Shown: positions 3,630 to 37,646, counted from the stretch's first letter. The stretch: 64,000 bases of DNA from a virus (IMGVR_UViG_3300021256_002164:1-64000); one strand, 5' to 3'. Made by a program: numbers and translations. The notes: generated from the letters alone by a model not told the origin.

Positions 3630-4745
3630 ATGTTAAACGAAGAAAAAGTATATCAAATTTTAGAAAGGTGGAATGATGAAAGTGACCATTATCTTGGTTC
3701 ACTATTTGGAGCAATATATCATAAATGTCCTGAATGTTATTATTTTCAGTTTAATGATAATCAAGAAATATTTTATGATAAGTATATAAATAAACGAACA
3801 GTTAATAAGGTATCATTAGTTTCATCTCATTGCTTAGATGATAGAAATTTATTATTATCATTTATTAATAAGCCTGATGATTATATGATTATAAATTACT
3901 CACCTACAGAGTATTTAATTCTTGGAAAAAAACAAGATATATTATTGACAATTATTATTAATGATAGTGGAGATAAATCACTTTCTGTATATCAAACTGT
4001 TTATGTTGATAGAAATGTAGAACATAATTTTTTAGATGAATTAAAACCATTCTTTGAATATTCTCAAAGGCATATTGATATTGATTTTGGTATTGCTGCA
4101 GTAGATGCTAGTGGTAGTATATATACTAATTATTATGATTATTATACAGTAGATGTAGATATTAATAAAAATTATAATGATGATATTCCATATGATAAGA
4201 TGATTAATATTCTTAAAGATGATAGTAAGTCGTCATTAATGCTATTTTATGGTGATCCAGGAACCGGAAAATCTACAATAATAAAACATTTTATAGGAAG
4301 ATTACCTGCAAAAGAATTTGTTTTTGTTGATGGTGCACTCTTAGCAAATGTACAGCAAGATAGATTAATGTCTTATTTCTTAGAAAATCAAGATACAGTA
4401 TTTATTTTTGAAGATTGTGAAAAAATATTACTAAGTAGAGATCATAATTATAATCCAACAATGTCAATACTTCTTAATTTAACTGATGGTATTATTAGTG
4501 ATGTTTTGAATATTAAAATTATTTGTACATTTAATACTTCTTTGTCAAATATTGATAAGGCACTATTACGAAAGGGACGTTTGACAATGAAATATGAATT
4601 CAAAAAGTTAAATAAAGAAAAAGCACAGAAACTATTACCTAATGAAACAATTACGCAGGATATGTCTTTAGCAGATATTTATAATTATTATGAAGAAAAC
4701 GATTTTAGTAAGAAACAACAAAATAAAATAGGGTTCAGTGTTTAA
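3630..4745 (+). CDS. AAA+ ATPase with an N-terminal domain of unknown function
   Basis: Walker A GDPGTGKST, Walker B VFIFEDCE, sensor-1-like ICTFNT, Arg-finger region LLRKGRL. N-terminal ~200 aa unassigned (CPECYYF). Confidence 0.7.
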   Translation: MLNEEKVYQILERWNDESDHYLGSLFGAIYHKCPECYYFQFNDNQEIFYDKYINKRTVNKVSLVSSHCLDDRNLLLSFINKPDDYMIINYSPTEYLILGKKQDILLTIIINDSGDKSLSVYQTVYVDRNVEHNFLDELKPFFEYSQRHIDIDFGIAAVDASGSIYTNYYDYYTVDVDINKNYNDDIPYDKMINILKDDSKSSLMLFYGDPGTGKSTIIKHFIGRLPAKEFVFVDGALLANVQQDRLMSYFLENQDTVFIFEDCEKILLSRDHNYNPTMSILLNLTDGIISDVLNIKIICTFNTSLSNIDKALLRKGRLTMKYEFKKLNKEKAQKLLPNETITQDMSLADIYNYYEENDFSKKQQNKIGFSV

Positions 4746-5661: not shown

Positions 5662-5989
5662 GGGGCTATTTTGGATTTGATTGGATATGTGACTTTAAGA
5701 ATCATGCAGGAGTGTTGAATCCTTAAATTTGACAAAACAATAAATGACGATAATTTTGAATATCGTATGGCTGCCTAACCTTTAGAAGGTTGATAAATAT
5801 CTTTAGGGCATATGCCGGCGCAGTGAGAACCTTTATTAAGGTCGTAGCAACAGAAGCCTCACAAACTACTTCAAACCATAATAATGTTAATCAGGTGAAA
5901 CATAAGTGAACTACATATATTTATAAAAGCATGTAATAAGTTCTTTTAGAAGTGTATTTAAGACGTGGGTTCGAGTCCCACTAGCTCCA
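5662..5989 (+). ncRNA. ssrA: tmRNA (SsrA)
   Basis: 5' end GGGGCTATTTTGGATTTGATTGG resembles the canonical GGGGCUGAUUCUGGAUUCGAC. 3' tRNA-like domain has T-arm GTGGG-TTCGAGT-CCCAC. Acceptor strand TAGCTCC pairs with 5' GGGGCTA, followed by discriminator A. Internal tag ORF …GAC GAT AAT TTT GAA TAT CGT ATG GCT GCC TAA (…DDNFEYRMAA*) ends at 5778. A terminator hairpin follows at 6010..6038. Confidence 0.7.
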
Positions 5990-6009
5990 CAAAATAATTA
6001 AATAATATA

Positions 6010-6204: not shown

Positions 6205-6858
6205 ATGCGAAAAATTTTATTAATTTTATGTTGTATATTATTTATAAGTAATATACATGGACAACAAATAGCACGTGCAGATGCTATTCTCTCTCTTGAA
6301 ACAATTCTTAATTCTTCTTGGCATAAATCAATGATAAATCCAGCAGAGGATGTGTATGATGATATATGGGATCATACTCATATTAATTGTTATTCAACAT
6401 TAAAAATGGAAAAGAATACATTAATTGATTTACAAGATTTTCATATGCCAATAAATAAAAATGAAATTGTAGTAACTTCTCAATATGGATATAGAAAACA
6501 ATTTAAAAGAAATCACTATGGAATTGACTTAAAAGTTCATACCGGAGATACTATATATTCAACATTTTCAGGAAAAATAAGAATTGTAAAATATGAGCCA
6601 AAAGGATATGGGAAAGTTATTGTTATACGGCATTTTAATGGCCTGGAAACAATTTACGGACATTTATCTAAACAATTAGTAAAAGAAAATGAATATGTTT
6701 ATGCAGGTCAACCTATTGGATTAGGTGGTTCTACAGGTCGTTCAACTGGCCAGCATCTTCATTTAGAAACTAAATATGGAAATGCTCATATTAATCCACA
6801 GAAGATATTTAATTTTAAATATCAAGATATCACAGATGATAAATATTTATATAAATAA
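6205..6858 (+). CDS. M23 family metallopeptidase (lysostaphin-like), secreted
   Basis: Signal peptide. M23 motifs HYGIDL (HxxxD) and GSTGRSTGQHLHLE (HxH). Candidate cell-wall hydrolase or lysin. Confidence 0.8.
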   Translation: MRKILLILCCILFISNIHGQQIARADAILSLETILNSSWHKSMINPAEDVYDDIWDHTHINCYSTLKMEKNTLIDLQDFHMPINKNEIVVTSQYGYRKQFKRNHYGIDLKVHTGDTIYSTFSGKIRIVKYEPKGYGKVIVIRHFNGLETIYGHLSKQLVKENEYVYAGQPIGLGGSTGRSTGQHLHLETKYGNAHINPQKIFNFKYQDITDDKYLYK

Positions 6859-13988: not shown

Positions 13989-16328
13989 ATGATATTAGAT
14001 AGAACATGGAGTAAAAAAGAACAAAAATTAACAGTTTCTTATATTGATAAATTAGGTAATAGACAATTTTATCAAAAGTATTTACATCATATTAAAAGCT
14101 ATGAGTATAATCCTAATGGCGATTTAGAAACTTGGGATGAAAAGAAATGTAGTAAAATTTTTAAAGATACCACAGATTATACGCCAAATGAATTTGAAAT
14201 ATTAGAGTATTTATATGAATTGCCCGAAGATTTAAATAAGGCTATGCATGCTCAATATTTTCCAAAGGTATATTCATTTGATATTGAAACTGAAGTTAGT
14301 GATGAATTTCCTGATCCTGAAATTGCTGCTCAAAAAGTAACTGCGATATCATTAGTTGGTCCTGATTTATCATGTATTGTATATGGACTTCACCAATTGA
14401 ATGAAGCACAAATTGAATTATTTAGAAAGAGATATATAGATTGGCTTCATGCTAATGAATTTGCAACAGCATTAATTAATAAGAATAATTGGAAGCCTAA
14501 AGTATTATATCAATATTTTCCTACTGAAGAAGAAATGCTTGAGCATTTTTTCACAGTGATTATTCCAAAAATCAGTTGTTTATCTGGATGGAATAGTTAC
14601 GGATTCGATATGTTATATTTGACTCATCGAATTGAAAGATTATTTGGTAAGAAGATTGCTATGAATATGATTTATAAAGCATCTCCAACAGGTGAAATTA
14701 AAAAGTATTCATGGGAAGATATGAATGGTGATAAGAAATTTTTCTGGGGTCCTGCTCATTCAGTTATTATTGACTATATGCTGGTAGTAAAACAATATGA
14801 TTATACATTAAGACCTTATGAAAGCTATTCATTGGATTGGGTAGGAAGTCATGCTGTCAATGCTCATAAAATTAAATATGAAGGAACATTGCAGCAATTA
14901 TATGAAAGAGATCCTGAATGGTATTATTTCTATAATGCTGTTGATAGTTTGATTACTGAATTAATTCATTATAAGCTTAAGTCTCTTGAATCGCCTTGTG
15001 CAACATCAGCAGTAACATTAGTATCATTATTAAGTGCATTTGGACAAGTTGCATTAGGAACAGCAAATGTATTTGAAGAATTTTATGAGCAAAATAAGAA
15101 AGTAGTATGGGATTATGATGCTATTGAACGTACAAAAATTCCATATGAAGGTGCATTTTGTGGATGTGTTCCTGGTCGTTATGAATTTACAGTTTGTGAT
15201 GATTTTGCTTCACTTTATCCGTCTCAAGTTCGTACATGTAATATATCATTTGAAAATCTTATCCAAGCTAAAGATGGACCAGATAGTTTTGGAAGATATA
15301 TACCAAGAAATTGGACTCCTGAAGAACTAGAAGAATTCAAGAAAGACCCAAACTATTTTGTTACTGTTATGGGTAATGTATATAAGAATGATAAAGACTA
15401 TGCATTCAGACGTATTCAAGCAAAGTTAAAGAGAAATAGAGATAAATATAAATATACAGGACAACGTGTAGAATCAGAAGCATTAGTATATATTGATGAT
15501 ATACTTTCAGGAAAACAATCAAATATTGTATTTGATGATGATGTAAATAAGCTCTTAACTGAAAAGTTTGCATTCTTAGGTGAAAATCCTCAACAATATA
15601 TTAAGAATATGTCTAAGCAAGAATTAGAATTATTTAGAGTTGATGTTGAAGATTTACGACATGAACATTGGCTTCTTGAGAATGCTATGAAAACATCAGG
15701 TAATGGATTATATGGCTGTTGTGCAAATAGATTTTTCTATTTCTATAATATGGCTTTAGCAGGTGATATTACTGGTGAGTGCCGTAATCTTACAAAGACA
15801 ATGTGGAATAATCTTGAATATTTCTTCCATGAAACTTTATGGGAAAGAAAAGACTTATGGAAAGAATTTGACTTTGAACTTGATGAAAGTATGCATGATT
15901 GGTATAGAGAACAACCTATCTCTATATATTCCGATACTGATAGCTTGGCAAAAAAATCATTATTATTAATTAAAGATACTAAAAATATTAAAAATAAAAT
16001 AACTATTGAAGATTTATTTAATCAATCTTTAGATAAAAATGGTTTATCAGATATAACACAGAATAATCAAGAAATAGTTAAGTGTGATCAACAATGTTTA
16101 AATTGGACTAAGGAAAATGGATTACAATATGTACCTATTAAATATATTATGAGACATAAAGTATCTAAAGAACAATTTAAAATTAAAACAAAATCGGGTA
16201 AAGAAATTATAGTTACAGGAGATCATTCTTGTATAGTTTTTAGAAATGGAAAACAATTAACTATTAAAGCTAGAGATATAAATAAATCTACTGATAAGAT
16301 TTTATCAATAATTAATAATGAAGAATAA
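13989..16328 (+). CDS. family-B DNA polymerase, N-terminal cistron (exonuclease plus motifs A, B, C) ending in an N-terminal split-intein fragment
   Basis: Exo I FDIETE, Exo II YGFDMLYL, Exo III YYFYNAVD. Motif A DFASLYPS, motif B KTSGNGLYG, motif C YSDTD|S. After DTD comes a ~128-aa Hint N-terminal half (SLAKK…TGDHSCIVF = intein block B), then stop. Confidence 0.85.
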   Translation: MILDRTWSKKEQKLTVSYIDKLGNRQFYQKYLHHIKSYEYNPNGDLETWDEKKCSKIFKDTTDYTPNEFEILEYLYELPEDLNKAMHAQYFPKVYSFDIETEVSDEFPDPEIAAQKVTAISLVGPDLSCIVYGLHQLNEAQIELFRKRYIDWLHANEFATALINKNNWKPKVLYQYFPTEEEMLEHFFTVIIPKISCLSGWNSYGFDMLYLTHRIERLFGKKIAMNMIYKASPTGEIKKYSWEDMNGDKKFFWGPAHSVIIDYMLVVKQYDYTLRPYESYSLDWVGSHAVNAHKIKYEGTLQQLYERDPEWYYFYNAVDSLITELIHYKLKSLESPCATSAVTLVSLLSAFGQVALGTANVFEEFYEQNKKVVWDYDAIERTKIPYEGAFCGCVPGRYEFTVCDDFASLYPSQVRTCNISFENLIQAKDGPDSFGRYIPRNWTPEELEEFKKDPNYFVTVMGNVYKNDKDYAFRRIQAKLKRNRDKYKYTGQRVESEALVYIDDILSGKQSNIVFDDDVNKLLTEKFAFLGENPQQYIKNMSKQELELFRVDVEDLRHEHWLLENAMKTSGNGLYGCCANRFFYFYNMALAGDITGECRNLTKTMWNNLEYFFHETLWERKDLWKEFDFELDESMHDWYREQPISIYSDTDSLAKKSLLLIKDTKNIKNKITIEDLFNQSLDKNGLSDITQNNQEIVKCDQQCLNWTKENGLQYVPIKYIMRHKVSKEQFKIKTKSGKEIIVTGDHSCIVFRNGKQLTIKARDINKSTDKILSIINNEE
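15942..16325 (+). mobile_element. N-terminal intein fragment (IntN-like, ~128 aa) inserted at PolB motif C
   Basis: Begins with Ser directly after YSDTD; contains the block-B-like VTGDHSCIV; terminates at a stop codon with no endonuclease domain in frame. Confidence 0.65.
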
Positions 16329-17565
16329 CGAATTTTATCATACTAGTATAGACATTAAAGAATATCCCTTTGATATAATATCTTTAGAAGAAGTTAATCA
16401 AGAACTAATACAATTAGTTAAAAAATTTAATTCTTCTAAAGATATTAATGAGAAAAAAGAATTATCTAAACAAATACCTATTGAATTTCCTAAATGTCGA
16501 TTTTGCGGAAATATTATTATAAATTCAAATTTTTTAATAAATTTAAAACAAAAAAATAAAACAATACAATTAATATTACCATCAGTTTATTACCGTGAAA
16601 TAGATGGAAAAAAATATTATTTAAGTTGTTGTGAAAATTGTTTATTAGAACATTTTAAAGATAATCCGCCTAAAGCACCTAAATATTATTTTATGAAAGC
16701 AAATATTTATGGTCAATATTGTTTTGGATATTCTGATGAAGAATATAAAAAAATATGTTCAATGACAGTTGGTGTAACATATAATTCAATGATTAATAAA
16801 TGGGGTAAAGAATTAGGAGAGAAAAAATGGAAAGAATATCGTGATAAACATTCAAAAATAGCGTCTAAACAATATTTTATTGATAAATATGGTAAAGAAG
16901 AAGGATTAAAAATCTATCATGATTCGAGAGCAATAACTAAAAAGGGAATGATAAAGAAATATGGTAAAGAACTTGGTTTAGAAAAATGGAAAGAATATTG
17001 TGATAAACAAAAAATAACTAAATCATTTGATTATATGATTAATAAATTTGGATATGATAAAGCAATTCAAATTAATAAATCTAAAGCATTAACATTAGAT
17101 AATTTTATTAGAAAATATGGAGAAGAATTAGGCAATAAAAAATATATAGAATTTACAAAAAGGCATATTAATTTTTATTCTAATATTTCTCAAAAATTAT
17201 TTAATGAATTAGATAAATATTTATCAGAAAAATATACAACATATTATGCAACTAAAAATTATGAATATCCTATTAAATTATTAGATAAATATGTTTGTTT
17301 AGATTATTATATTAAAGAATTAAATATATGTATTGAATTTAATGGAAGTATATTTCATGGAGAACCTCGATTATATAAAGATAATGATAAATGTAATCCA
17401 TTTATTAATTTAACTGCTAAAGAAATTAGAGATAATGATCAAAAAAGATATAATTTACTAAAAGAATTATATAATATTAATACATATATTATTTGGGAAT
17501 TAGATTATAATAAAAATTTTAATATACAAGACTATATTATAAAAGTATTAAAAATTAATATATAA
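16318..17565 (+). mobile_element. free-standing homing-endonuclease-like gene inside the fractured polymerase
   Basis: Separate frame, overlaps the upstream stop by 11 nt. N-terminal Cys4 zinc ribbon (CRFCGN…CCENC). Four ~30-aa repeats (KYGKELGLEKWKEYCDKQ…). C-terminal Vsr/PD-(D/E)xK-like nuclease core LDYYIKELNICIEFNGSIFHGEP. Confidence 0.6.
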
Positions 17566-17570
17566 TAATT

Positions 17571-18539
17571 ATGTTAGAATATCAATTTGAAGAAATAGAA
17601 AGTATTGAACAACTAGACAATTTTAATGATGAATATGTTTATGATATAGAAGTAGATGATAATTCTCATACTTTTATAGCAAATGATATATTAGTTCATA
17701 ATTCGGTTTATACAACTTATGGTACATTATTCCGTTGTATGACACCAAAATATCAAGAAAAGTATAAAGATAAGAAAACAAAAGTAGATTGGATATTGAA
17801 TTTTAATAAGAAATTTGTAGATAAGCAAAATAACCAATGGTGTGAAGAAATGTATAATCCTCGTCATGGCAAGAATGTTCATGAGTTTGAATTAGAGACT
17901 GTTTCATATTCACAAATTTGCTTAAAGAAAAAGAAATATCTTAAAGGTTATGCGTTTGTTAAAGGTAAGTTTTACGATAAGCCAAAAGTAAGTGGAACAG
18001 GTATTGAACTTATTAAATCAACTACACCAGCATTATGTAGAGAGATTCTTTCAGACTTAATGAATAGTCTTATGTTTGAATATGATGAAGACCATAAGAA
18101 AGAATATATTCTTGAGTTTAATATGAAATTAGCTAATTATAGGAAACAATTCTATTCTGCTCCATTTGAAGATATATCTCAATCTATAGGTGTTGGTAAT
18201 TATAAAAAGTATGTTATTGATGACGAAGATGATTTACTATTAGGAAAACAATGTCCAGTATCAGTTCAAGCTATAGCACGATATAATTATTTAGCACATA
18301 AGAATGGACAAGATAATCTTAAGCAATATTCAGGTAAGATTAAATATTATAATGTTAAGATAGGTAATACAGATGGATATTTTGGTTTTCCTGCTGGCGA
18401 GCTTCCTGAATGGGCACCACCTATGAATAAAGAAATGCAATGGAGAAAAACAATTATAGACCCAATTAATCGTTTCTTGGAAGTTATGGAGATTCCATTG
18501 GTAAATGCTGGAACAGCTCAGCAATTAACATTATTTTAA
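17571..18539 (+). CDS. family-B DNA polymerase, C-terminal cistron beginning with a C-terminal split-intein fragment
   Basis: First 44 aa MLEYQ…VYDIEVDDNSHTFIANDILVHN are intein blocks F/G ending HN, then S+VYTTYG restores the motif-C context (YSDTD-SVY). Downstream KKKY (KKRY motif) and a thumb region. Confidence 0.85.
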   Translation: MLEYQFEEIESIEQLDNFNDEYVYDIEVDDNSHTFIANDILVHNSVYTTYGTLFRCMTPKYQEKYKDKKTKVDWILNFNKKFVDKQNNQWCEEMYNPRHGKNVHEFELETVSYSQICLKKKKYLKGYAFVKGKFYDKPKVSGTGIELIKSTTPALCREILSDLMNSLMFEYDEDHKKEYILEFNMKLANYRKQFYSAPFEDISQSIGVGNYKKYVIDDEDDLLLGKQCPVSVQAIARYNYLAHKNGQDNLKQYSGKIKYYNVKIGNTDGYFGFPAGELPEWAPPMNKEMQWRKTIIDPINRFLEVMEIPLVNAGTAQQLTLF

Positions 18540-18595
18540 ATTATTATTAAATACATGGTAACTTTGTTATAAATATTATATATATGGAAGCATAA

Positions 18596-18856
18596 TTGAT
18601 AATAAATATATTCAAATTACCAGTTATGAGCATAATTTTATTTCTATGTTTTATAGGTTTATTGTATGCTTTATATAAAATTACGAAAAATATAGATAAA
18701 GAAATACATGATAATTATATAAAGATACAAGACCAAATAAAACAATTAAATGATGAGTATGTAAATGGTAAATATGATTTTGAAACGTATAAAGAAAAAA
18801 AGAACGCATTATTTAAATCATATCATATACCTCTTAATTATAAAGAAGACCTTTAA
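18596..18856 (+). CDS. small membrane protein
   Basis: N-terminal TM helix (LPVMSIILFLCFIGLLYALY); followed by a terminator. Confidence 0.45.
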   Translation: MIINIFKLPVMSIILFLCFIGLLYALYKITKNIDKEIHDNYIKIQDQIKQLNDEYVNGKYDFETYKEKKNALFKSYHIPLNYKEDL

Positions 18857-18870
18857 AGGTCTTCTTTTTT
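18843..18870 (+). terminator. Rho-independent terminator
   Basis: aagaagaccttt-aaa-ggtcttctt hairpin followed by TTTTTT. Confidence 0.75.
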
Positions 18871-18939
18871 GATATAAATATATGAATAATTTATTAGTAT
18901 AGACTATATTTAATATATAATTTAAATAATATTAATGAT

Positions 18940-19647
18940 ATGATAGATTGGAGTAAATATTTTGACCATATTTTTTGTATTCACTATTTAGCTAATGACC
19001 GAATTAATAGACATCATCAATTAATTAATGAATTATCCAGAGTTGGAATATATCAATCTGGAATTTTTTCATTTATATATGATGAAGATTCGGTAATTAC
19101 TAATGATATAATGGAAAATGCAAGAAATAAATATTTTATTGGATTAGATAAATATGGGAAACGAGTAACAATAAATCATTATAAAGCATTTAATATTGCA
19201 AAGATATGTGGATATAAGAATATATTAGTGCTTGAAGATGATGTATGTTTTTTGAAAGACTTAGATGAATTAGAAAAATATATTCAAGAAACAAGTGTAT
19301 TGAATACTGATTTAATTATGTATGATTATATTACTTATAAGAATATATATACAAATACTGAATTAAATTGCTTTGCTACTTGTTATCAATTAAAGAATGA
19401 CGGTATTGATAAGATGATTAAGAATCTTGAACATATTCATATGTATATTATTGACTTATATTTTTCTACTACTAATCATTATAATTTCTATGCTAAAGAT
19501 TATGAACAACCGATAGTATATCCTCATGTCTTAAGTATTAGTAAATGTCCTAAACGATTAGCATTACAAAGAAATAACCCAGCATATAAGAATTGTCATA
19601 TAGATATAAATTATGATGAATATGAAAATTTTTTTGATAAAAACTAA
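18940..19647 (+). CDS. glycosyltransferase family 25-like protein (LPS/LOS-type)
   Basis: MIDWSKYFDHIF… and ILVLEDDVCFLKD (LEDD motif), as in GT25 enzymes; paralog of 36963..37646. Confidence 0.55.
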   Translation: MIDWSKYFDHIFCIHYLANDRINRHHQLINELSRVGIYQSGIFSFIYDEDSVITNDIMENARNKYFIGLDKYGKRVTINHYKAFNIAKICGYKNILVLEDDVCFLKDLDELEKYIQETSVLNTDLIMYDYITYKNIYTNTELNCFATCYQLKNDGIDKMIKNLEHIHMYIIDLYFSTTNHYNFYAKDYEQPIVYPHVLSISKCPKRLALQRNNPAYKNCHIDINYDEYENFFDKN

Positions 19648-19762
19648 AAATTTTTGTATATAATTTAAAATTTTTTGAAAAAAAGTATTATATTTATATA
19701 GTAATTTATAGAAATATAGGTTACTGAGCTACTATAAAAATATTAACATAAATAATTAAATT

Positions 19763-21709
19763 ATGAGCAACAAAGTTTTTGGTATCGATTTGGGTACCGG
19801 TAATTCATGTGTAGCTGTTATTGAAAATGGAAAGGCTACAGTTATTGCAAATGCTGAAGGTAATCGTACAACTCCTTCAGTAGTTTTTATTAAGGGTGAT
19901 GAACGTAAAGTTGGAGGTTCAGCTAAACGTGGTATGATTATGAACCCTAAGAATACAGTATCTTTCATTAAGCGTTTTATGGGTGCTGAATGGCAAGATG
20001 CAGATGTACAAAAGATGTTGACTATGGTAACTTATGAAGTAGTTAACAAAAATAATAAGCCGTATATTAAGATTGATGGTAAAGAATATTCTGCTGAGGA
20101 AATCTCTTCATATATTCTTGCTGACCTCGCAAAGGTTGCATCAGAATATTATGGTGAAGATGTAAAGAAGGTTGTTATTACTGTTCCTGCATGGTTCAAT
20201 GATGTTCAACGTAAGGCAACACAACTTGCTGGCGAACTTGCTGGACTTGAAGTTCTCCGTATTATCAATGAGCCTACCGCAGCTATTCTTGCAGCTGGTA
20301 TGGATAAAGAAGATAAGGAACGTCTTGTACTTGTAAATGACCTTGGTTGTGGTACTGAAGATGTATCTATTTGCGAAGTTTCACAAGGAATCGTTGAAGT
20401 TCTTGCATCTGATGGTGATGTATTCCTTGGCGGTCAAAACTATGATAATGAAATTGTAAATTGGTTGGCCGATGAATTTATGAAGGACCATGCTGGTGTT
20501 GATTTACGAAAGGATCCTATGGCATATGCACGTTTGGTTGAAGCTGCAGAAAAAGCAAAATGTGAATTGTCAACCGCAACACAAGCTGAAATCAATCTTC
20601 CTTATATTACTGTTATTGATAGTGTTCCTCAAATGTTGGTAACCACATTGACTCGTGCTAAATTTGAATCACTTACAAAGCAATATACAGATAAGGTAAT
20701 TGAAATTGCAAAACGTGCTCTTGAAAAGGCAGGTAAGACTTCTGCAGATATTACAGATATTCTTCTTGTTGGTGGTTCTTCACGTATGCCACAAGTACAA
20801 GAAGCACTTAAGAATGCATTTGGTGATAAACTTAATAAGCAATCTAATTTTGATGAAGCAGTTGCACTTGGTGCAGCAACTCAAGCTAAAGCAATTGCAA
20901 ATCCTGAAGAAGGTGATACATTGCTTCTTGATGTAACTCCTATTTCACTTGGTATTGAAGTTAATGGCAATATGTTTGGTAAGCTTGTAGATGCTAATAC
21001 AACTATTCCATGTAAGAAATCACAAATCTTTACAACAGCGGTAGATAATCAACCTGCAGTATCAATCGTAGTTCTTCAAGGTGAACGTCCTATGAGTAAG
21101 GATAATAAGCAAATTGGTATATTCAACCTTGATGGTATTGCTCCTGCCCCTCGTGGAATTCCTCAAATTGAAGTAACATTTGATATTGATGCTAATGGTA
21201 CTTTGACAGTAACTGCTGTTGATAAGGGTACTAATAAGGAACAGCATATTACTATTTCAGATTCTAATACTCTATCACAAGATGAAATTGATAGAATTAA
21301 GAAGGAAGCTGAAGAACATAAAGCTGAAGATGATAAGAAGAAAGCTGAGTTTGAAAAGAAGAATGAAGCTGAAGGATATATCTATTCAGTTGAAAAATCT
21401 TTGAATGATGAACAATTTAAAGATAAGTTTACTGAAGATGAAAAGAAGCAACTTGAAGACCTTGTAAAGGAAGCTAAGGAAGCAATCGATTCTAAAGATG
21501 ATGAAAAGATGTTTTCTAAGAAAGAAGAACTTGAAAAGGTATATGCTCCTATCATTACACGTATCTATCAAGAATCAATGCCTAAGGACCAACAAGGTAA
21601 TCCCCAAGTAGATCCTAATATGTTCAAAAATATGTTTGGTAGTGGTAATTTTGCTACAGGTGCAGATTTTGATCCATCAAAGTTTACACAAGCAAAACCG
21701 AATAATTAA
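19763..21709 (+). CDS. dnaK: Hsp70/DnaK-family chaperone (divergent)
   Basis: IDLGTGNS (cf. IDLGTTNS), [10 protein letters not shown] (cf. DLGGGTFDVS), VGGSSRMP (cf. VGGSTRIP), [14 protein letters not shown], charged C-terminal lid. GC content higher than flanks. Confidence 0.85.
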
Positions 21710-21771
21710 TATATAAAACTCTCAATGGGATTCTCATTTGAGAGTCCCTATATAAATATATTCAAAAATAA

Positions 21772-22215
21772 TTGGAGGTAATTATTATGACAAACGCTTT
21801 AGATTTTTTCAATTTTGGTAAATCGTCTATTTTCGACAATTGGTTCGACAATTTTGGTATGATTCCAACAAACTTTACCAATTCCCCAAAGGTTAATGTA
21901 AAGGAAACTGATAAAGCTTATGAAATAGAAATTGCCAATCCTGGTTTCTCTAAAGATGAAACAAAAATTGAGGTTAAGAATGGTATTATTACTGTTTCAA
22001 TGACTTCTGAAAGTAAAGAAGGTGAAGGAACAGAAGATAAGTATCATGTTAAACAATGGAGTAAATCATCTTATGAGGAATCTTGGAATCTTCCAGAAAA
22101 TGTAATTGATGACCAAATCTCAGCAAAGAATGTTGATGGGGTTCTTACAATTACATTACCTAAACGAGAGGAAGATACTAAGAAAGAAGAACCAAGGACC
22201 ATTACTATTGAATGA
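21772..22215 (+). CDS. small heat-shock protein (Hsp20/α-crystallin family)
   Basis: α-Crystallin domain ending …AKNVDGVLTITLPK. A GGAGGT ribosome-binding site precedes the ATG. Confidence 0.8.
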   Translation: MEVIIMTNALDFFNFGKSSIFDNWFDNFGMIPTNFTNSPKVNVKETDKAYEIEIANPGFSKDETKIEVKNGIITVSMTSESKEGEGTEDKYHVKQWSKSSYEESWNLPENVIDDQISAKNVDGVLTITLPKREEDTKKEEPRTITIE

Positions 22216-22218
22216 TAT

Positions 22219-22262
22219 TTATTTTGGGTGGGACTTAAAAATCTCACCCAAATTTTTCTATT
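22219..22262 (+). terminator. Rho-independent terminator after the sHsp gene
   Basis: tttgggtg…cacccaaa hairpin followed by a TTTTTCTATTTT run. Confidence 0.6.
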
Positions 22263-22290
22263 TTATTATATTAAATATATTTGAAGTATT

Positions 22291-22926
22291 ATGACAGAAT
22301 TAAGCTTAATTGCACAAAATTATTTAACAGATAAAGGTTGTACATATTTTAATTCTCATTGTTATACTGAAATTTATAATTCTTATTTTCAAAAACTTAA
22401 GAATAAAAATAGAAAAGTATATATTTTAGAAATTGGAGTACAAGCAGGATATGATTTATTAATGATGAATGATTATTTTGAAGGCAATTGTGAAATATAT
22501 GGTTTTGATATTAATATAAATACTTTAGAAGTTGAATTACCTGATAATATTCATATATTTGAATTAAATGCTGCAAGTATACCAGAGTTAAATAAATTTT
22601 ATTCAAACTTAATACATTGGTCAGTAAATAAAATGCCTCAATTTGATATTATTATTGATGACGGTTCCCATGAGTCACAAGATATATTAACATCTTTATA
22701 TTTTTTCTATCTTATGTTATCTTATGATGGTATATATATTATAGAAGATTTACATGCAGAATCAGCAAAAGAAGCATTAAATTATTTAACATTTAATGAG
22801 TCAAATAATATTAATATGGATGATGTAACAAAAAATATACAAAGTAAAACTATACATTATATTTGTAATTCCTATTGTATAGACTATGATAGTTCTATAT
22901 GTGCAGTTTTAACATTTAAAAAATAA
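22291..22926 (+). CDS. class I SAM-dependent methyltransferase
   Basis: Motif I-like VYILEIGVQAG and motif IV-like IIIDDGSH (TylF/FkbM-like O-MTase architecture). Confidence 0.55.
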   Translation: MTELSLIAQNYLTDKGCTYFNSHCYTEIYNSYFQKLKNKNRKVYILEIGVQAGYDLLMMNDYFEGNCEIYGFDININTLEVELPDNIHIFELNAASIPELNKFYSNLIHWSVNKMPQFDIIIDDGSHESQDILTSLYFFYLMLSYDGIYIIEDLHAESAKEALNYLTFNESNNINMDDVTKNIQSKTIHYICNSYCIDYDSSICAVLTFKK

Positions 22927-22929
22927 GTT

Positions 22930-24018
22930 ATGGCAAATAATAAAGATTTATACGAAATATTAGGTTTATCACGTAATGCATCTGATAATGATATTAAGAA
23001 AGCATATAAGAAGCTTGCTTTAAAATATCATCCTGATCGTCAAGGTGGAAAATCAGATAAAGAAAAGAAAGAAGCTGAAGAAAAATTTAAGGAAGTATCA
23101 TGGGCTTATGATATATTAAGCAATCCTGAAAAGAAACAGCGATATGATCAGTTTGGTATTACTGATGACCAGCAACAAATGAGTGGCGGATTTGATCCTT
23201 CAGAAATATTCAAACATTTTATGGGAGGATTTGATAGTATGTTTGATGATGACGATTCTCCTTTTGGAACATTTTTTAATAGAAGAAGTTCTCGTCAACC
23301 CAGAGGACCTCAGCCAGGACAGTCAATAAGAATGCAAATTCCAGTTAGTATAGAAGAAATCTGTAATGGTGTTCATAGAGATATTGAATATAATATACAA
23401 GCAAAATGCTCAAGTTGTCATGGAACTGGTGGTGATGGAGTTGAAACTTGTCAATATTGTCATGGAACTGGTATGATTACAGAAACTCAACGAATGGGAT
23501 TTAGTATTATTCAAAATTCTCATCCATGTCATTATTGTGGAGGAACTGGTAAAACTATTAAATATAAATGTTCAAAATGTAATGGTACTGGATTTGAAAC
23601 TAAAACAGTTAAAGTACATGTTGATATTAATCCTGGATTTGAAAATGGATATCAACAAATGTTTAATGGAAAGGGATATGAATCTAAAGATGGTGGGCAA
23701 AATGGTGATTTACTATTAGATTTTATTTATCAATATGATACTTCTAAATATTCAATTCAAGGAAATAATATATATGAAATAATTGAAATTCCATATTATG
23801 ATTGTATACTTGGTTGTAAAAATAAAGAAGTAACATTACCAAATAATGATAAAATAAAAATCAATATTCCAGAATATTCAAAAGATAATACATTAGTTCA
23901 AACAAATAAGAGATTTGGAAGAATGGGATATATATATGTTATAAAAGTAAAAATGCCAACATATATAAGAGATAAAGAAAAAGAACTATTAGAGAAAATT
24001 AAAAAGGAGAACCATTAA
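22930..24018 (+). CDS. dnaJ: DnaJ (Hsp40) co-chaperone
   Basis: J-domain DLYEILGLSRNASDNDIKKAYKKLALKYHPDRQ; four CxxCxGxG zinc-finger repeats (CSSCHGTG, CQYCHGTG, CHYCGGTG, CSKCNGTG); C-terminal β domains. Confidence 0.85.
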   Translation: MANNKDLYEILGLSRNASDNDIKKAYKKLALKYHPDRQGGKSDKEKKEAEEKFKEVSWAYDILSNPEKKQRYDQFGITDDQQQMSGGFDPSEIFKHFMGGFDSMFDDDDSPFGTFFNRRSSRQPRGPQPGQSIRMQIPVSIEEICNGVHRDIEYNIQAKCSSCHGTGGDGVETCQYCHGTGMITETQRMGFSIIQNSHPCHYCGGTGKTIKYKCSKCNGTGFETKTVKVHVDINPGFENGYQQMFNGKGYESKDGGQNGDLLLDFIYQYDTSKYSIQGNNIYEIIEIPYYDCILGCKNKEVTLPNNDKIKINIPEYSKDNTLVQTNKRFGRMGYIYVIKVKMPTYIRDKEKELLEKIKKENH

Positions 24019-24043
24019 GATTCTCCTTTATTTTTTTAATCAA
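23998..24043. terminator. Bidirectional terminator hairpin
   Basis: aggagaa…tctcct hairpin followed by TTTATTTTTTT, between convergent dnaJ and the first DUF285 gene. Confidence 0.6.
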
Positions 24044-25196
24044 CAATACCTCCACCATAAAACTCATCAAATGTTTTACCTCTCCAGAGCATTTTTACTG
24101 GGTCAATAAAAAATGTTCCATACTTATAATCATTTCCTTTTAAAATACATGGATATTTTACTGATAAATCTCCAGTAGTTTTATCTACTTCTTTATAATA
24201 TTTTTTAAGTAGACTCATTTCATCAGTTGTAAGTGCACCACCTTTATCATTATTTAATTTATTATTTAATGCTATTAATTTAGATTTATCTGATGTAGGA
24301 ATATTTTTTATTCTATTTCTTGCTTCTTTAGATATTTCTCCAAAATACCATACAGGCGGATTTTTTTCTAATGGTGAACCAGTAAATATATTTTTCATAT
24401 TTGTAACACGGTTTACATTCCAATTATCAAGATTTCCGTTAAACTTAGAATTGTAAAACATATAAGACATTTCAGTAACTCTACTTACATTCCATTTTGA
24501 TATATTTCCTTTAAATTTTTTATTACTACTAAACATTGAGCTTATATTTGTAACACGACTTACATCCCAATTTGATATATCACCATTAAGTCCACTAAAT
24601 TTACAATTATAAAACATTTCATGAATATCTGTAACATGACTTACATCCCATTTTGATAAATCTCCGTCATAAACAGATTGTGTAAACATAGAGCGCATAT
24701 TTGTAACATGGCTTACGTCCCAATTTGATATGTCACCATTTTTTCCTGTAAATGCACTTCCAAAAAACATTAATTCAGTACTTTCTATACTACTTAATTT
24801 CCATTTTGATAAATCTCCGTCATATAATGAATCAAAGAACATACGAGTTACATCTTTAACATTTGATACATCCCAATTTCCTAAATCACCGTTTTCACCA
24901 GTATATTTACTATCACAAAACATTCTTGACATATCTTCAACATTGCTTACATCCCATTTTGATATATCACCATTAAATTTTCTTAAATATAAATGTTTAC
25001 CATTAAATAAGCTAGACATATCTGTTATCTGACTAACATCAATATCATTTAAATTTGCATTAAGACCTCTTTCAGTAATAAGAGTTTTAAGTAATTTATC
25101 TAATTCTTTTCTTGTTTTCGGAAAATATTTATATTTAGTTACAGTATCATTATTTAATTCAAATTTTTCTTGTATATATTGATTTAAATTTTTCAT
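24036..25196 (-). CDS. DUF285-type repeat protein (Mycoplasma-type 'WDVSNVT.M..MF' repeats), full length
   Basis: ≥9 tandem ~24-aa repeats (GDISNWDVS.VT.M..MF); conserved N-terminus MKNLNQYIQEKFE; extended C-terminal domain. Confidence 0.7.
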   Translation of the reverse strand: MKNLNQYIQEKFELNNDTVTKYKYFPKTRKELDKLLKTLITERGLNANLNDIDVSQITDMSSLFNGKHLYLRKFNGDISKWDVSNVEDMSRMFCDSKYTGENGDLGNWDVSNVKDVTRMFFDSLYDGDLSKWKLSSIESTELMFFGSAFTGKNGDISNWDVSHVTNMRSMFTQSVYDGDLSKWDVSHVTDIHEMFYNCKFSGLNGDISNWDVSRVTNISSMFSSNKKFKGNISKWNVSRVTEMSYMFYNSKFNGNLDNWNVNRVTNMKNIFTGSPLEKNPPVWYFGEISKEARNRIKNIPTSDKSKLIALNNKLNNDKGGALTTDEMSLLKKYYKEVDKTTGDLSVKYPCILKGNDYKYGTFFIDPVKMLWRGKTFDEFYGGGIVD

Positions 25197-25271
25197 ATTT
25201 ATATTTATATTATTTTTTATGCTTATTTTATTGTTTATTTTAATTCTATTTCTTGCTGATTTAGATATTTC

Positions 25272-26114
25272 TCAAAAATACCATATTGGAGGATTTTTTT
25301 CTAATGATGAACCAACAAACATATTTTTCTTATATTTTACTTTCTCTACATTCCAATTTTCTAATCCTTTACCTGTAAATAATGAACATCCATAAAACAT
25401 ACAAAGCATATCTGTAACTTTAGATACATTCCATTTGCTTAAATCACAATTAAATTTTTTGCAATTACCAAACATATTACACATAGTTTCAACATTAGAA
25501 ACATCCCAATTACTTAAATCACAATTCAAATTTGTACAATCTTTAAATGTAGATTCCATAGTTTCAACATTAGATACTTCCCAATTTTCTAATCCTTTAC
25601 CTGTAAATAATGAACATCCTTCAAATATACCACTCATATCTTTAACTTTAGATACTTTCCAATTTTCTAATCCTTTACCGGTAAATGATGAACAATGATA
25701 AAACATATGCCACATATCTTCAATATTAGATACATCCCAATTACTTAAATCACTATTAAAATTTTTACAACCACCAAACATATGTCTTATATCTTTAACA
25801 TTACTAATATCCCATTTATTTAAATCACAATTAAAATATGTACAATTAGTAAACATATTTCTCATAGTTGTAACATTAGATACATCCCATAATGATATAT
25901 CAATATTATGTGGATCTAACTCTTGAAACAATGATTCCATATCTGTTATATTACTAACATCTATATCATTTAAATCAATATCCTTATCTTTAGCTAATCG
26001 TTCTTCTAATATTTTTCGAAGCTCCTCTGTTGTCTTAGGAGAATATTTATAAGTTCTTTTTGTATTCTTATTTATTTCAAATTTTTCTTGTATATATTGA
26101 TTTAAATTTTTCAT
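25272..26114 (-). CDS. DUF285-type repeat protein, paralog 2 (C-terminally truncated by an in-frame TGA)
   Basis: Same N-terminus and repeats. Ends …PPIWYF*, whereas paralog 1 reads …PPVWYFGEISKEARNRI. Sequence after the TGA still encodes EISKSARNRI. Confidence 0.65.
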   Translation of the reverse strand: MKNLNQYIQEKFEINKNTKRTYKYSPKTTEELRKILEERLAKDKDIDLNDIDVSNITDMESLFQELDPHNIDISLWDVSNVTTMRNMFTNCTYFNCDLNKWDISNVKDIRHMFGGCKNFNSDLSNWDVSNIEDMWHMFYHCSSFTGKGLENWKVSKVKDMSGIFEGCSLFTGKGLENWEVSNVETMESTFKDCTNLNCDLSNWDVSNVETMCNMFGNCKKFNCDLSKWNVSKVTDMLCMFYGCSLFTGKGLENWNVEKVKYKKNMFVGSSLEKNPPIWYF

Positions 26115-26164
26115 TTTTATATTAATTATTTTATTTTTTAATTTTTAAAACAAATAAATATAAA

Positions 26165-26854
26165 TTAATTTTTATACCAAGCAGGAATATGTTTTAATGA
26201 TGAGCAGTTGACAAACATTTGAGCTGGGAATTTTGCTAGTTTAGACACATCCCATTTACTTAAATCACAATTAAAACTTTTACAATCATAGAACATATAG
26301 CCCATATATTCAACTTTAGACACTTTCCATTTACTCAAATCAGAATTAAATTGTTGACAGCCATGAAACATAGCCTCCGTATTTACACACGAAGATAAAT
26401 CCCAATGGCTTAAATCTGCATTAAATTCTTCACAATCATAGAACAAGTAACTCATATATTTAACGTTAGATACATCCCAATCGCTTAAATCAGAATTAAA
26501 TATATCACATCTGTTAAACATACCATTCATATCTGTAACATTAGAAACGTTCCATTCACTCAAATCAGAATTAAAATTCATACAATTGGAAAACATATAT
26601 TCCATATTTTCAACATTAGAAACATCCCATTGCGATATATCTATATTATGAGGATCCAAACCTTTAAATAACTCATTCATATATGTTATTTTAGATACAT
26701 CAATATCATTCAAATTGGCATTTTTATCTTTCTTTAGCCGTTGTTCTATTATTTCTCGTAATTCTTCTGTTGTCTTAGGAGAATATTTATAAGTTCTTTT
26801 TGTATTCTTATTTATTTCAAATTTTTCTTGTATATATTGATTTAAATTTTTCAT
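26165..26854 (-). CDS. DUF285-type repeat protein, paralog 3
   Basis: First ~40 codons and the upstream region are near-identical to paralog 2 at the nucleotide level; same repeat family. Confidence 0.65.
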   Translation of the reverse strand: MKNLNQYIQEKFEINKNTKRTYKYSPKTTEELREIIEQRLKKDKNANLNDIDVSKITYMNELFKGLDPHNIDISQWDVSNVENMEYMFSNCMNFNSDLSEWNVSNVTDMNGMFNRCDIFNSDLSDWDVSNVKYMSYLFYDCEEFNADLSHWDLSSCVNTEAMFHGCQQFNSDLSKWKVSKVEYMGYMFYDCKSFNCDLSKWDVSKLAKFPAQMFVNCSSLKHIPAWYKN

Positions 26855-35100: not shown

Positions 35101-35844
35101 ATGAAAAAATCTCAATGTATTGTTTTAATACCAATTTATCAAGAAGAATTAAATCAATATGAAAAAATGTCAATATATAATACTATTGATAAATTTGATG
35201 GAATATATGATATTTATTACTTAATAGGAAATAATTTTGATATAAATAAGTTTTTTGAAAAAAATAATATTGAAACAAGATACCAAACTAATTATTATAT
35301 ATTTTCGCATATTGAGTTTAATAGTATTTCAGCATATAATACTTTATTGTTATCTCAAAATTTTTATGAGACATTTATAGATAAATATAATTATATATTA
35401 ATTGTTCAAACTGACGCATATGTTTTCGATCAGTTTAAACTTCAAAATTATATTAATAAAGGGTATAATTTTATTGGTGCACCTATTATATTTCCAAATA
35501 CATTAAATAGATTTTCTGTTTTTAAACGAGGTATATATTATAATGGAGGATTATCATTAAGAAATATTAAGTTTTGTTTAGACTCATTACAAGATAAAGA
35601 ATATATTAATTATTTATATTCATATGGATATGTAGATGAAGATATGGTTTTCTCATCATTTGTTCAAGAGTTATATCCATCACCTACATATTTAGAAGCA
35701 TTACAATTTTCAATAGATAATCAAATAGAACTATATGCACCCATATTAGATTTTAAACAACCATTTGGAATTCATCATTTTTTCAATAATGATGATAACC
35801 AGTTTAATAAATTAGAATATATTAAAGATTTAAAATGGATATAA
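35101..35844 (+). CDS. hypothetical protein, possible GT-A-like glycosyltransferase
   Basis: ILIVQTDAYVFDQ (DxD-like) context; weak. Confidence 0.35.
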   Translation: MKKSQCIVLIPIYQEELNQYEKMSIYNTIDKFDGIYDIYYLIGNNFDINKFFEKNNIETRYQTNYYIFSHIEFNSISAYNTLLLSQNFYETFIDKYNYILIVQTDAYVFDQFKLQNYINKGYNFIGAPIIFPNTLNRFSVFKRGIYYNGGLSLRNIKFCLDSLQDKEYINYLYSYGYVDEDMVFSSFVQELYPSPTYLEALQFSIDNQIELYAPILDFKQPFGIHHFFNNDDNQFNKLEYIKDLKWI

Positions 35845-36962: not shown

Positions 36963-37646
36963 ATGATAGATTGGAATAAGTATTTTGAACACATATTTAT
37001 ATTATCTCGTTGTTCTAATTTCAAACAAAGAGAATTACTTGAAGCTGAATTAAAACGAGTAGGTATAACTAATTATACATTTTGGTATAATATTGATAGT
37101 AATTTAATAGATACTACTCATTTTGTTCCAGAAATGTCTATATCTCAGTGTAGAGCAACATATGGACATTATTCAATTATTAAAATATGCTATGAATTAA
37201 ATTATAATAATGTATTGATTTTAGAAGATGATATTCGATTTTTAAAAGATATAGATAGTATTCAAAATGGTTTAGATGAATTTTTAAATAGTAATTCTGA
37301 TTTTTATTTATTTGATTGGATAACATTAGATAATGTAGTAAATTATTATTTGCTTGATGCATATTATCTTAATCGTAGAGGAATGGAATATTTAATTTAT
37401 TGTATTGAAAATTATCCATTTCATGTTGATTCATATAGTTATCCTACTGTATTAAATAATGATAATAGAGATATAAATAGAATATTTTATGTATATGGTA
37501 AACCATATAATTTTTATATATCTAAAGAATTGAATATACAATTAAATGCAGCAAATAACCGAATATGTGTACAAAATAATCCTACTGTATTTAACCCTAA
37601 TACTAATCCTAATTATAATTTATATAATATTGATAAGAATATATGA
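36963..37646 (+). CDS. glycosyltransferase family 25-like protein (paralog of 18940..19647)
   Basis: MIDWNKYFEHIF… and VLILEDDIRFLKD. Confidence 0.55.
   Translation: MIDWNKYFEHIFILSRCSNFKQRELLEAELKRVGITNYTFWYNIDSNLIDTTHFVPEMSISQCRATYGHYSIIKICYELNYNNVLILEDDIRFLKDIDSIQNGLDEFLNSNSDFYLFDWITLDNVVNYYLLDAYYLNRRGMEYLIYCIENYPFHVDSYSYPTVLNNDNRDINRIFYVYGKPYNFYISKELNIQLNAANNRICVQNNPTVFNPNTNPNYNLYNIDKNI

Follow-up and report, generated by a model that had tools for sequence, protein, structure and literature searches.

A conserved DnaK–sHsp–DnaJ gene module in a clade of metagenomic huge phages

The chaperone locus

The stretch of viral DNA analyzed here, positions 1-64000 of IMGVR_UViG_3300021256_002164 (64,000 nucleotides, hereafter the window), has a GC content of about 25% and carries at 19763-24018, on the plus strand, four open reading frames (ORFs) encoding a DnaK (Hsp70), a small heat-shock protein (sHsp), a methyltransferase and a DnaJ (Hsp40). 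These genes lie where a preliminary description, made from the sequence alone, had placed them, and its assignments are borne out by database matches for the three chaperones, the methyltransferase being predicted from PHROG and PDB matches (Table 1). The three chaperone genes are intact, conserved, co-located and under selection, and a large clade of metagenomic huge phages has kept them in the order DnaK-sHsp-DnaJ.

Table 1. Positions and supporting evidence for the genes and transcript features of the chaperone locus, counted from the first letter of the window.
Feature	Position	Strand	Product or evidence
dnaK	19763..21709	+	648-aa Hsp70, G12/W145/C197 lineage; PF00012 full length
9-bp hairpin just 3' of the dnaK stop	21727..21748	+	RNAalifold, minimum free energy fold
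GGAGG Shine-Dalgarno of the sHsp gene	21774..21778	+	Shine-Dalgarno motif count over 41 window genes
sHsp gene	21787..22215	+	142-aa Hsp20/alpha-crystallin protein; PF00011
Intrinsic-terminator-like hairpin (11 bp + T-run) after the sHsp gene	22223..22252	+	Terminator scan, sequence
TylF/MycE-like class I O-methyltransferase gene (predicted)	22291..22926	+	211 aa; phrog_21658, 8ia9, 3ssm
dnaJ	22930..24018	+	362-aa type I Hsp40; PF00226 + PF00684 + PF01556
Hairpin where the ends of dnaJ and a DUF285 gene converge	24003..24029		Terminator scan; terminator-like on the minus strand

The phage DnaK

The DnaK matches PF00012 throughout (residues 5-603 on profile positions 1-599 of 599, 709 bits), aligns end to end with solved DnaK and mortalin chains, and possesses the full-length Hsp70 architecture, i.e. 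an actin-like ATPase domain, a linker, a beta-sandwich substrate domain and a helical lid. Of two curated DnaK equivalog models, it reaches the cut-off of NF001413 (768.5 bits; cut-off 648) but not that of TIGR02350. When residues are numbered through alignment to E. coli DnaK, D8, T11, K70, P143, R151, E171, D194, T199 and D201 are unchanged in the window and in every aligned clade member, and the same is true for R167/N170/T173, G196, G198, the G32 loop, the linker VLLLD, F426, A429, V436 and I438. Following the published DnaK literature, we take D8/K70/E171/D194/T199/D201 to be catalytic, P143/R151 to constitute the switch, R167/N170/T173 the J-domain surface and F426/V436/I438 the substrate pocket. 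The preliminary description had named disrupted catalytic residues in the ATPase domain as a possible refutation; all of these residues are identical in the window and its clade. Altered in the window DnaK are non-catalytic neighbours (T12G, Y145W, G197C and F200E) and the substrate arch (M404N). Measured against L012, the closest relative with separate DNA (DnaK 93% identical), the ratio of nonsynonymous to synonymous substitution rates (dN/dS) is 0.07 for dnaK, 0.14 for the sHsp gene and 0.13 for dnaJ; all three chaperone genes are under purifying selection.

The DnaK is divergent, as had been noticed earlier: its identity amounts to 46% with E. coli DnaK and to 52% with the DnaK of a Bacilli metagenome-assembled genome (MAG), compared with 56% between those two. 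For the ATPase domain the respective values are 47-51% and 60%, and the extra divergence is concentrated in this nucleotide-binding domain. An exhaustive search of 1.84 billion cluster representatives returned the clade's own P0121 at 62% identity and the nearest representative outside the clade at 53%. Of the bacterial species representatives that a scan with seeds from the query's own 8-mers brought up, none exceeded ~53% identity, and all that this genome scan yielded were AT-rich Bacilli MAGs at ~50%, although the shared 8-mers bias the result. No donor could be identified among the nearest non-clade Hsp70 clusters, which are mostly unnamed metagenomic proteins. The second-best cluster representative, P0122 (KHN76390.1, 929 aa), is annotated as a Toxocara canis Hsp70, matches in three stretches at 48% and is probably a chimeric or contaminated nematode gene model.

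Two motifs of the DnaK had been singled out as changed at nearly invariant positions. For DLGCGTED this stands, given that Cys197 is found in 1 and Glu200 in 0 of the 150 nearest Hsp70 cluster representatives, with Trp145 in 1/150 and Gly12 in 4/150. For VGGSSRMP it does not, as Ser343 is present in 82 and Ser344 in 29 of the same 150 (E. coli DnaK reads VGGQTRMP). The former motif is thus diagnostic and truly unusual, and the latter is not. Of the viral Hsp70 loci fetched, 15 carry G12/W145/C197 and 67 the canonical T/Y/G; the 15 come from the window clade and from Lak, together with a few contigs of 60-64% identity. The DnaK belongs to a phage-specific lineage common to the Prevotella Lak megaphages (62-63% identity) and marked by T12G, Y145W and G197C. 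The fixed changes near the nucleotide site (T12G, Y145W, G197C, F200E/L), together with M404N, may tune the ATPase cycle or the client range.

DnaJ, the sHsp and transcript signals

The DnaJ is composed of a J domain (PF00226), a short glycine/phenylalanine-rich region, a zinc finger (PF00684) and C-terminal domains (PF01556). Neither its H34-P35-D36 (HPD) motif nor C160/163/174/177/200/203/214/217 vary between the window, Lak and E. coli, and its four CXXCXGXG zinc motifs give it the type I (class A) architecture.

The sHsp matches PF00011 (75 bits; cut-off 20.8) and phrog_432 (Hsp20), and its C-terminus, RTITIE, contains the I-x-I motif (ITI). The gene was taken to start at ATG 21787 (142 aa), on which gene callers agree for the source scaffold (L009) and which is preceded by GGAGG at 8 nt; TTG 21772, the start in an ORF-finder listing, was discarded in its favour. 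Copies that are 67-72% identical are located between dnaK and dnaJ in L002-4 and L006-8. A Shine-Dalgarno (SD)-like motif was found in 1/41 window genes (background 0.06), the sole carrier being the sHsp gene with its perfect GGAGG. The leader was compared between the window (21750-21789), L002-L004, L006-L008, L012 and L072-L073, and 'GGAGGTAATTATTATG' is kept in most listed clade loci, including L007 and L012, with AGAGG in L004/L073. This conservation is observed although synonymous sites of the flanking genes are near saturation. Furthermore, an invariant 8-bp A.U/G.U stem reaches as far as the start codon, and its loop contains the SD. The leader might be a thermometer-like element or a special signal for translation, in a system that is SD-independent otherwise (Bacteroidota-type).

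Concerning other transcript signals, RNAalifold on four clade sequences supported the hairpin after dnaK with nine pairs, two of which show compensatory GC->AU changes; the hairpin is deleted in the relative L012 and is possibly an attenuator or a transcript-stabilising element. The terminator scan gave 4 sites versus 1.5 expected in shuffles. Overall, the transcript signals come down to the three hairpins of Table 1, of which the one after the sHsp gene is strong. Sigma-70 promoter-like sites occurred at chance level (47 versus 44 expected in AT-rich DNA), and a search for the CIRCE heat-shock operator returned none within 3 mismatches.

The methyltransferase

The 211-aa ORF resembles a phage methyltransferase family (phrog_21658, E=9e-19) and, over residues 3-156 including 'DIIIDDGSH', the demethylmacrocin O-methyltransferase 8ia9 (E=5e-8) and 3ssm (E=1e-6) in PDB. 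No Pfam family matched it above threshold (Methyltransf_24 was sub-threshold, E=0.003), and an AlphaFold single-sequence model was unusable, with a predicted local distance difference test (pLDDT) score of 37.5. The preliminary description had counted this gene as part of the module, a view that we abandon, as it is confined to the strain of the window itself (L009-L011), is absent from all related loci including L012, and resembles sugar O-methyltransferases. Glycosyltransferase-like genes lie nearby at 18940-19647 (weak GT25), 35101-35844 (DUF5672) and 36963-37646 (GT25). Because of these neighbours and the matches to TylF/MycE-type sugar O-methyltransferases, the ORF is read as a predicted strain-specific glycan-modification gene that was inserted in the module and is unrelated to the chaperones.

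Conservation of the module and its relatives

The order DnaK-sHsp-DnaJ was detected in L002-L004, L006-L008 and L012-L013, and DnaK-DnaJ without the sHsp in Lak-A2 and L005. Within a reach of 5 kb, 80 other Hsp70-bearing viral loci had none of these partners in 57 cases, a DnaJ in 15, an sHsp in seven and a GrpE in six; the full order was limited to loci of the window clade. This clade is large, with at least 120 clusters (at 90% identity) that are 83-97% identical to the window DnaK, on contigs of up to 467 kb. In L007 (IMGVR_UViG_3300028591_006041) the sHsp is 72% and the DnaJ 46% identical to those of the window, but the DnaK only 54-55%, with canonical GGGTHD and PAYF, which suggests that DnaK was replaced in the L007 lineage within a conserved module.

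The relationship to Lak differs between genes. Identity is 63% for DnaK and 41% for DnaJ, but only 28% for the capsid protein. Its best matches among deposited phages are at 36%, namely an uncultured 462-kb phage and Sphingomonas phage PAU, followed at ~32% by Tenacibaculum jumbo phages (PTm1, 32%) and Chryseobacterium jumbo phages; all of these rank above Lak. The window phage is thus not simply 'a Lak phage'. The greater closeness of the chaperone genes is compatible with slow evolution since a deep common ancestor as well as with a transfer between phage lineages. Lak reportedly recodes TAG as Gln (PMC8297831). The window reads cleanly in the standard code; its ORFs of 2,873 and 1,772 aa run without interruption, and its 41 ORFs end in TAA (35), TGA (4) or TAG (2). 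An attempt to use the recoding for timing was uninformative, since the Lak-A2 capsid gene carries no in-frame TAG in the homologous region.

In the Lak-B phages, dnaK is split between DLGC and GTED by an insert of ~1.5 kb (L174 = Lak-B5, MK250024.1 392943-396951, ~895-2395), which contains a 367-aa ORF in a third frame, the two exons being in differing frames. Because of this difference in frame, the insert has the look of an intron that carries a homing endonuclease, rather than of an intein; Rfam models for group I and II introns found no match in it.

In the preliminary description the complete chaperone set was called unusual for a tailed phage. This remains valid for cultured phages, among which jumbo phages encode DnaJ-domain proteins and Hsp20 only, predicted to recruit the Hsp70 of the host (Iyer et al. 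2021, PMC7824862). It does not extend to metagenomic huge phages. IMG/VR holds at least 404 Hsp70 stretches, a DnaK ortholog is present in all 15 complete circular Lak genomes (MK250015-MK250029), and PHROGs already includes full-length families matching the window DnaK and DnaJ. In addition, DnaK, DnaJ and HSP20 of 'moraphages' were published in 2025, most of the DnaKs falling inside Flavobacteriaceae and being read as recent host-to-phage transfers (PMC12619734). The Lak papers mention just 'multiple molecular chaperones'. Among deposited phage genomes, convincing phage-borne DnaK was found only in uncultured phages of at least 484 kb (Lak, LR7565xx, LR745206); other GenBank 'phage' records with DnaK were set aside, as they look like bacterial contamination, with dnaK beside grpE and hscA.

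GrpE in Lak and rejected candidates

GrpE (PF01025, 141 bits) is encoded in 15/15 Lak genomes as well as in LR756502 and LR756504. It is unlinked to dnaK, being 126 kb away in Lak-A2. The Lak phages thus own a complete DnaK-DnaJ-GrpE machine.

Several candidates for a GrpE of the window clade were rejected. An 86-aa ORF at 18596-18856, two genes upstream of dnaK, has an N-terminal membrane helix and a coiled-coil stretch of 38 residues resembling the GrpE N-terminal helix ('YDFETYKEK'), and scores 13 bits against a GrpE hidden Markov model (HMM; E=6e-4 in 215 segments); it was discarded for its shortness, its weak match and the lack of any DnaK-contacting parts. A profile built with E. coli GrpE among its sequences brought up so many enterobacterial proteins that it was uninformative for the window clade. 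With Lak GrpE as the query, the intermediate GrpEs P0400, P0409 and P0401 turned out to lie in bacterial, Bacteroidales-like contexts, while P0396 belongs to another AT-rich megaphage contig that has only DUF285 repeats in common with the window.

Origin of the DNA and probable host

Apart from the chaperones, the window codes for a gp23-type major capsid protein (45465-47264), an S77 (gp21-type) prohead protease, a collagen-repeat fibre with an S74 chaperone domain, a helicase and a sigma-like factor. It is part of a 203-kb metagenomic scaffold, on which phage genes lie on both sides of the chaperone locus. The GC content of dnaK (0.358 versus ~0.25 locally) had been regarded as a sign of acquisition. 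We cannot follow this view, as the excess resides in codon position 1 (0.55), and GC at third codon positions (GC3) is 0.18 in dnaK and 0.19 in the capsid gene. The raised GC is a matter of amino-acid composition, the protein being conserved and rich in Gly/Ala/Val/Asp/Glu, and is uninformative on origin.

The chaperone locus is phage-borne and not a host flank, because virion genes and a family B DNA polymerase (PolB) share the window, the scaffold extends to 203 kb, GC3 and leaders are uniform, Lak carries orthologues and identity to the bacterial representatives recovered does not exceed ~53%. The preliminary description had judged the module to be phage-borne while naming a prophage flank as the counter-case; the flanking phage genes, GC3 and the Lak orthologues rule the latter out. 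The host of the clade is probably a member of Bacteroidota, because 40/41 window genes have SD-less, AT-rich leaders and the capsid relatives include Tenacibaculum, Chryseobacterium, Flavobacterium and Prevotella phages.

Other features of the window

A transfer-messenger RNA (tmRNA) gene with the tag peptide DDNFEYRMAA was detected at 5662-5992 (ARAGORN; Rfam RF00023, 87 bits), near genes for an SPFH/Band-7 protein (165-983), an AAA ATPase (3630-4745) and an M23 peptidase (6205-6858). The tmRNAs of huge phages have been described previously (PMC7162821).

PolB is intein-bearing and spread over three ORFs (13989-18539). The first (13989-16328) comprises the N-extein and the N-terminal splicing domain of the intein, the second (16318-17565) is a free-standing 415-aa ORF in another frame (phrog_22677), and the third (17571-18539), in the same frame as the first, comprises the C-terminal end of the intein ('...VHNS') and the C-extein. 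This layout calls to mind a 'fractured gene' or a split intein between whose parts an endonuclease gene is placed.

Downstream of dnaJ, three tandem DUF285 ('Mycoplasma' leucine-rich-repeat-like) genes with a near-identical N-terminus ('MKNLNQYIQEKFE...') occupy 24036-26854 on the minus strand. A similar gene also adjoins GrpE and an S77 protease on another AT-rich megaphage contig (L152).

Possible roles of the module

We consider it highly probable that the module works as an Hsp70 system of the phage itself and enhances proteostasis during infection. The set, inherited as a block, would unite an ATP-driven DnaK, its cognate type I DnaJ and the sHsp as an ATP-independent 'holdase'. By analogy with bacteria, the sHsp would keep unfolded proteins soluble and DnaJ would bind clients through its zinc-finger and C-terminal domains, its HPD motif triggering ATP hydrolysis by DnaK, which would clamp the client and then free it for folding. 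Nucleotide exchange would be the task of GrpE, phage-encoded in Lak and, in the window clade, either host-derived or yet to be found. The most likely benefit would be added folding and anti-aggregation capacity in infection. The need for it may arise from a very large proteome, including virion proteins of 1,100-2,900 aa, and from host chaperones that are perhaps limiting or shut off. The idea that the giant virion proteins are the clients is speculative, its one support being the correlation with extreme genome size; a dedication to the collagen-like fibre, also suggested in the preliminary description, is likewise only conceivable.

A number of points weigh against a functional proteostasis system. 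The DnaK does not reach the cut-off of the equivalog TIGR02350 (758 versus 822.55 bits) and the DnaJ fails both of its equivalogs (TIGR02349, 283.9 versus 377.2 bits; NF008035, 237 versus 338), so by score the DnaJ is a divergent member at the domain level and not an equivalog. G197C in the phosphate-binding loop and F200E in place of a strongly conserved hydrophobic residue could conceivably entail an altered or reduced ATPase. In agreement with the preliminary description, an HMM search of the six-frame translation of the 64-kb window found nothing credible for GrpE; the same HMM recovers three distant control GrpEs, not used in building it, at 102-196 bits. Two pattern scans that found GrpE on Lak contigs gave none on window-clade contigs of 376 kb and 435 kb, which is a weak negative. 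For the nucleotide-exchange step, these searches of the window and of clade contigs (376-435 kb) thus supply no GrpE. Furthermore, the module resides in a same-strand block with PolB and not with structural genes, and so offers no specific pointer to virion assembly. Finally, both the clients and the benefit are what we infer.

It is improbable, in our view, that the G12/W145/C197 Hsp70 of the window clade and Lak is a virus-specific lineage whose remodelled nucleotide loop changes the ATPase cycle and sustains an insulated, phage-private proteostasis circuit. If so, one might expect, for example, nucleotide exchange by DnaK that is fast enough without GrpE in the window clade, or a redox-sensitive Cys in the phosphate loop. 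The partners of the DnaK would then be limited to the DnaJ that co-evolved with it and to an sHsp with a special mode of translation.

We attach an equally low probability to a role in replication or genome handling, in which the module would remodel replication or packaging complexes instead of serving general folding. In phage lambda, DnaK/DnaJ/GrpE of the host release the DnaB helicase from the P protein. The layout of the window is in line with such a role, since the intein-bearing PolB and dnaK, ~1.2 kb further downstream, belong to one co-directional block (13989-24018, plus strand) and every virion gene of the window is on the opposite strand. However, the adjacency to PolB is not conserved, the upstream genes being different in L012 and Lak-A2, no replication client is identifiable, and the conserved sHsp partner argues for the handling of aggregates.

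Host takeover or counter-defence is somewhat less probable still. Here the phage pair of DnaJ and DnaK would titrate the chaperones of the host or take their place and in this way disable chaperone-dependent immune sensors or stress regulators. There is a literature precedent, as the idea was raised for moraphages with reference to DnaJ-dependent bNACHT25 sensing and to RB43 Rki, which stabilises sigma-32 (PMC12619734). The retention of R167/N170/T173 in DnaK and of HPD in DnaJ renders cross-talk with host partners plausible, and the fixed Y145W and nucleotide-loop changes could insulate the phage pair from host regulators. Nevertheless, a full type I DnaJ, a full DnaK substrate-binding domain and an sHsp are more than a decoy needs; in addition, no defence-related genes adjoin the module, nor does CIRCE or another host heat-shock operator.

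A pseudo-chaperone, in which G197C, F200E and T12G have abolished ATP turnover and left a passive holdase or structural component, is very improbable. The rarity or absence of G197C, Y145W and F200E among the 150 nearest representatives and the score below the TIGR02350 cut-off are compatible with it, and the Hsp70 homologue of closteroviruses did become part of the virion. Yet all needed catalytic and allosteric residues are kept across lineages that are only 60% identical, position 197 is restricted to small residues (C, A), the cognate DnaJ that co-evolves alongside has an intact HPD, Lak phages keep GrpE, and the dN/dS of dnaK is as low as stated above. Lastly, despite the GenBank 'phage' DnaK records that resemble bacterial contamination, host chromosomal DNA or an assembly chimera is effectively refuted by the phage genes on both sides of the locus within a 203-kb scaffold, the uniform GC3 and SD-less leaders, the orthologues in 15 complete circular Lak genomes and the ~53% ceiling among recovered bacterial representatives.

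The module adds a well-sampled and clearly selected example to the growing indications that the largest phages possess folding machinery of their own and depend on the host only in part. What is new is a single phage-specific DnaK lineage with fixed changes beside the ATP site, common to Lak and an otherwise distant clade, the conserved DnaK-sHsp-DnaJ order, and the complete DnaK-DnaJ-GrpE set of Lak, which is not spelled out in the Lak papers. Current views are not overturned, as phage DnaK/DnaJ/Hsp20 sets are already known from other large phages. The phage proteins are directly testable through in vitro expression, for which no phage culture is needed.

Comparison with known systems

Compared with the bacterial DnaK-DnaJ-GrpE system and its IbpA/B-type sHsp, the phage proteins have the same domain architecture in all three cases and keep the catalytic, allosteric, J-domain-contact and substrate-pocket residues. 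The phage DnaK, however, is only 46-52% identical to its bacterial counterparts, the gene order is dnaK-sHsp-dnaJ with no grpE among them, and CIRCE is absent. In addition, the phage DnaJ lacks ~30 C-terminal residues and one short loop of E. coli DnaJ.

With Lak, the window shares the G12/W145/C197/E200/N404 signature, and in Lak a 41% identical DnaJ follows directly downstream of dnaK. The differences are that Lak-A2 has no sHsp between dnaK and dnaJ and possesses an unlinked GrpE, that the dnaK of Lak-B is interrupted, that Lak recodes TAG (PMC8297831) while the window uses the standard code, and that the capsids are 28% identical. The moraphages, too, are large uncultured phages of Bacteroidota (for the window, the probable host) with DnaK and DnaJ, in some cases with HSP20, and the same functional hypotheses have been discussed for them (PMC12619734). 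In contrast to their DnaKs, that of the window is at most 53% identical to non-clade clusters and 46-52% to named bacterial DnaKs, and bears a phage-specific signature.

RB43 Rki, the DnaJ-domain proteins of jumbo phages and the Hsp20 of cyanophages all plug into the Hsp70/sHsp network (PMC7824862; PMC3486835 as cited in PMC12619734). Phages with a single co-chaperone contribute an accessory part and depend on the Hsp70 of the host, whereas the window phage encodes the ATPase itself. Mimivirus, with Hsp70 and DnaJ, and the closteroviruses, with Hsp70h, are eukaryotic viruses with large or complex virions that carry an Hsp70 of their own. They belong to other virus realms and represent independent acquisitions, and in closteroviruses the Hsp70h, whose substrate domain has diverged, serves in the virion and in movement. 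The window DnaK differs from it in keeping the canonical DnaK substrate domain.

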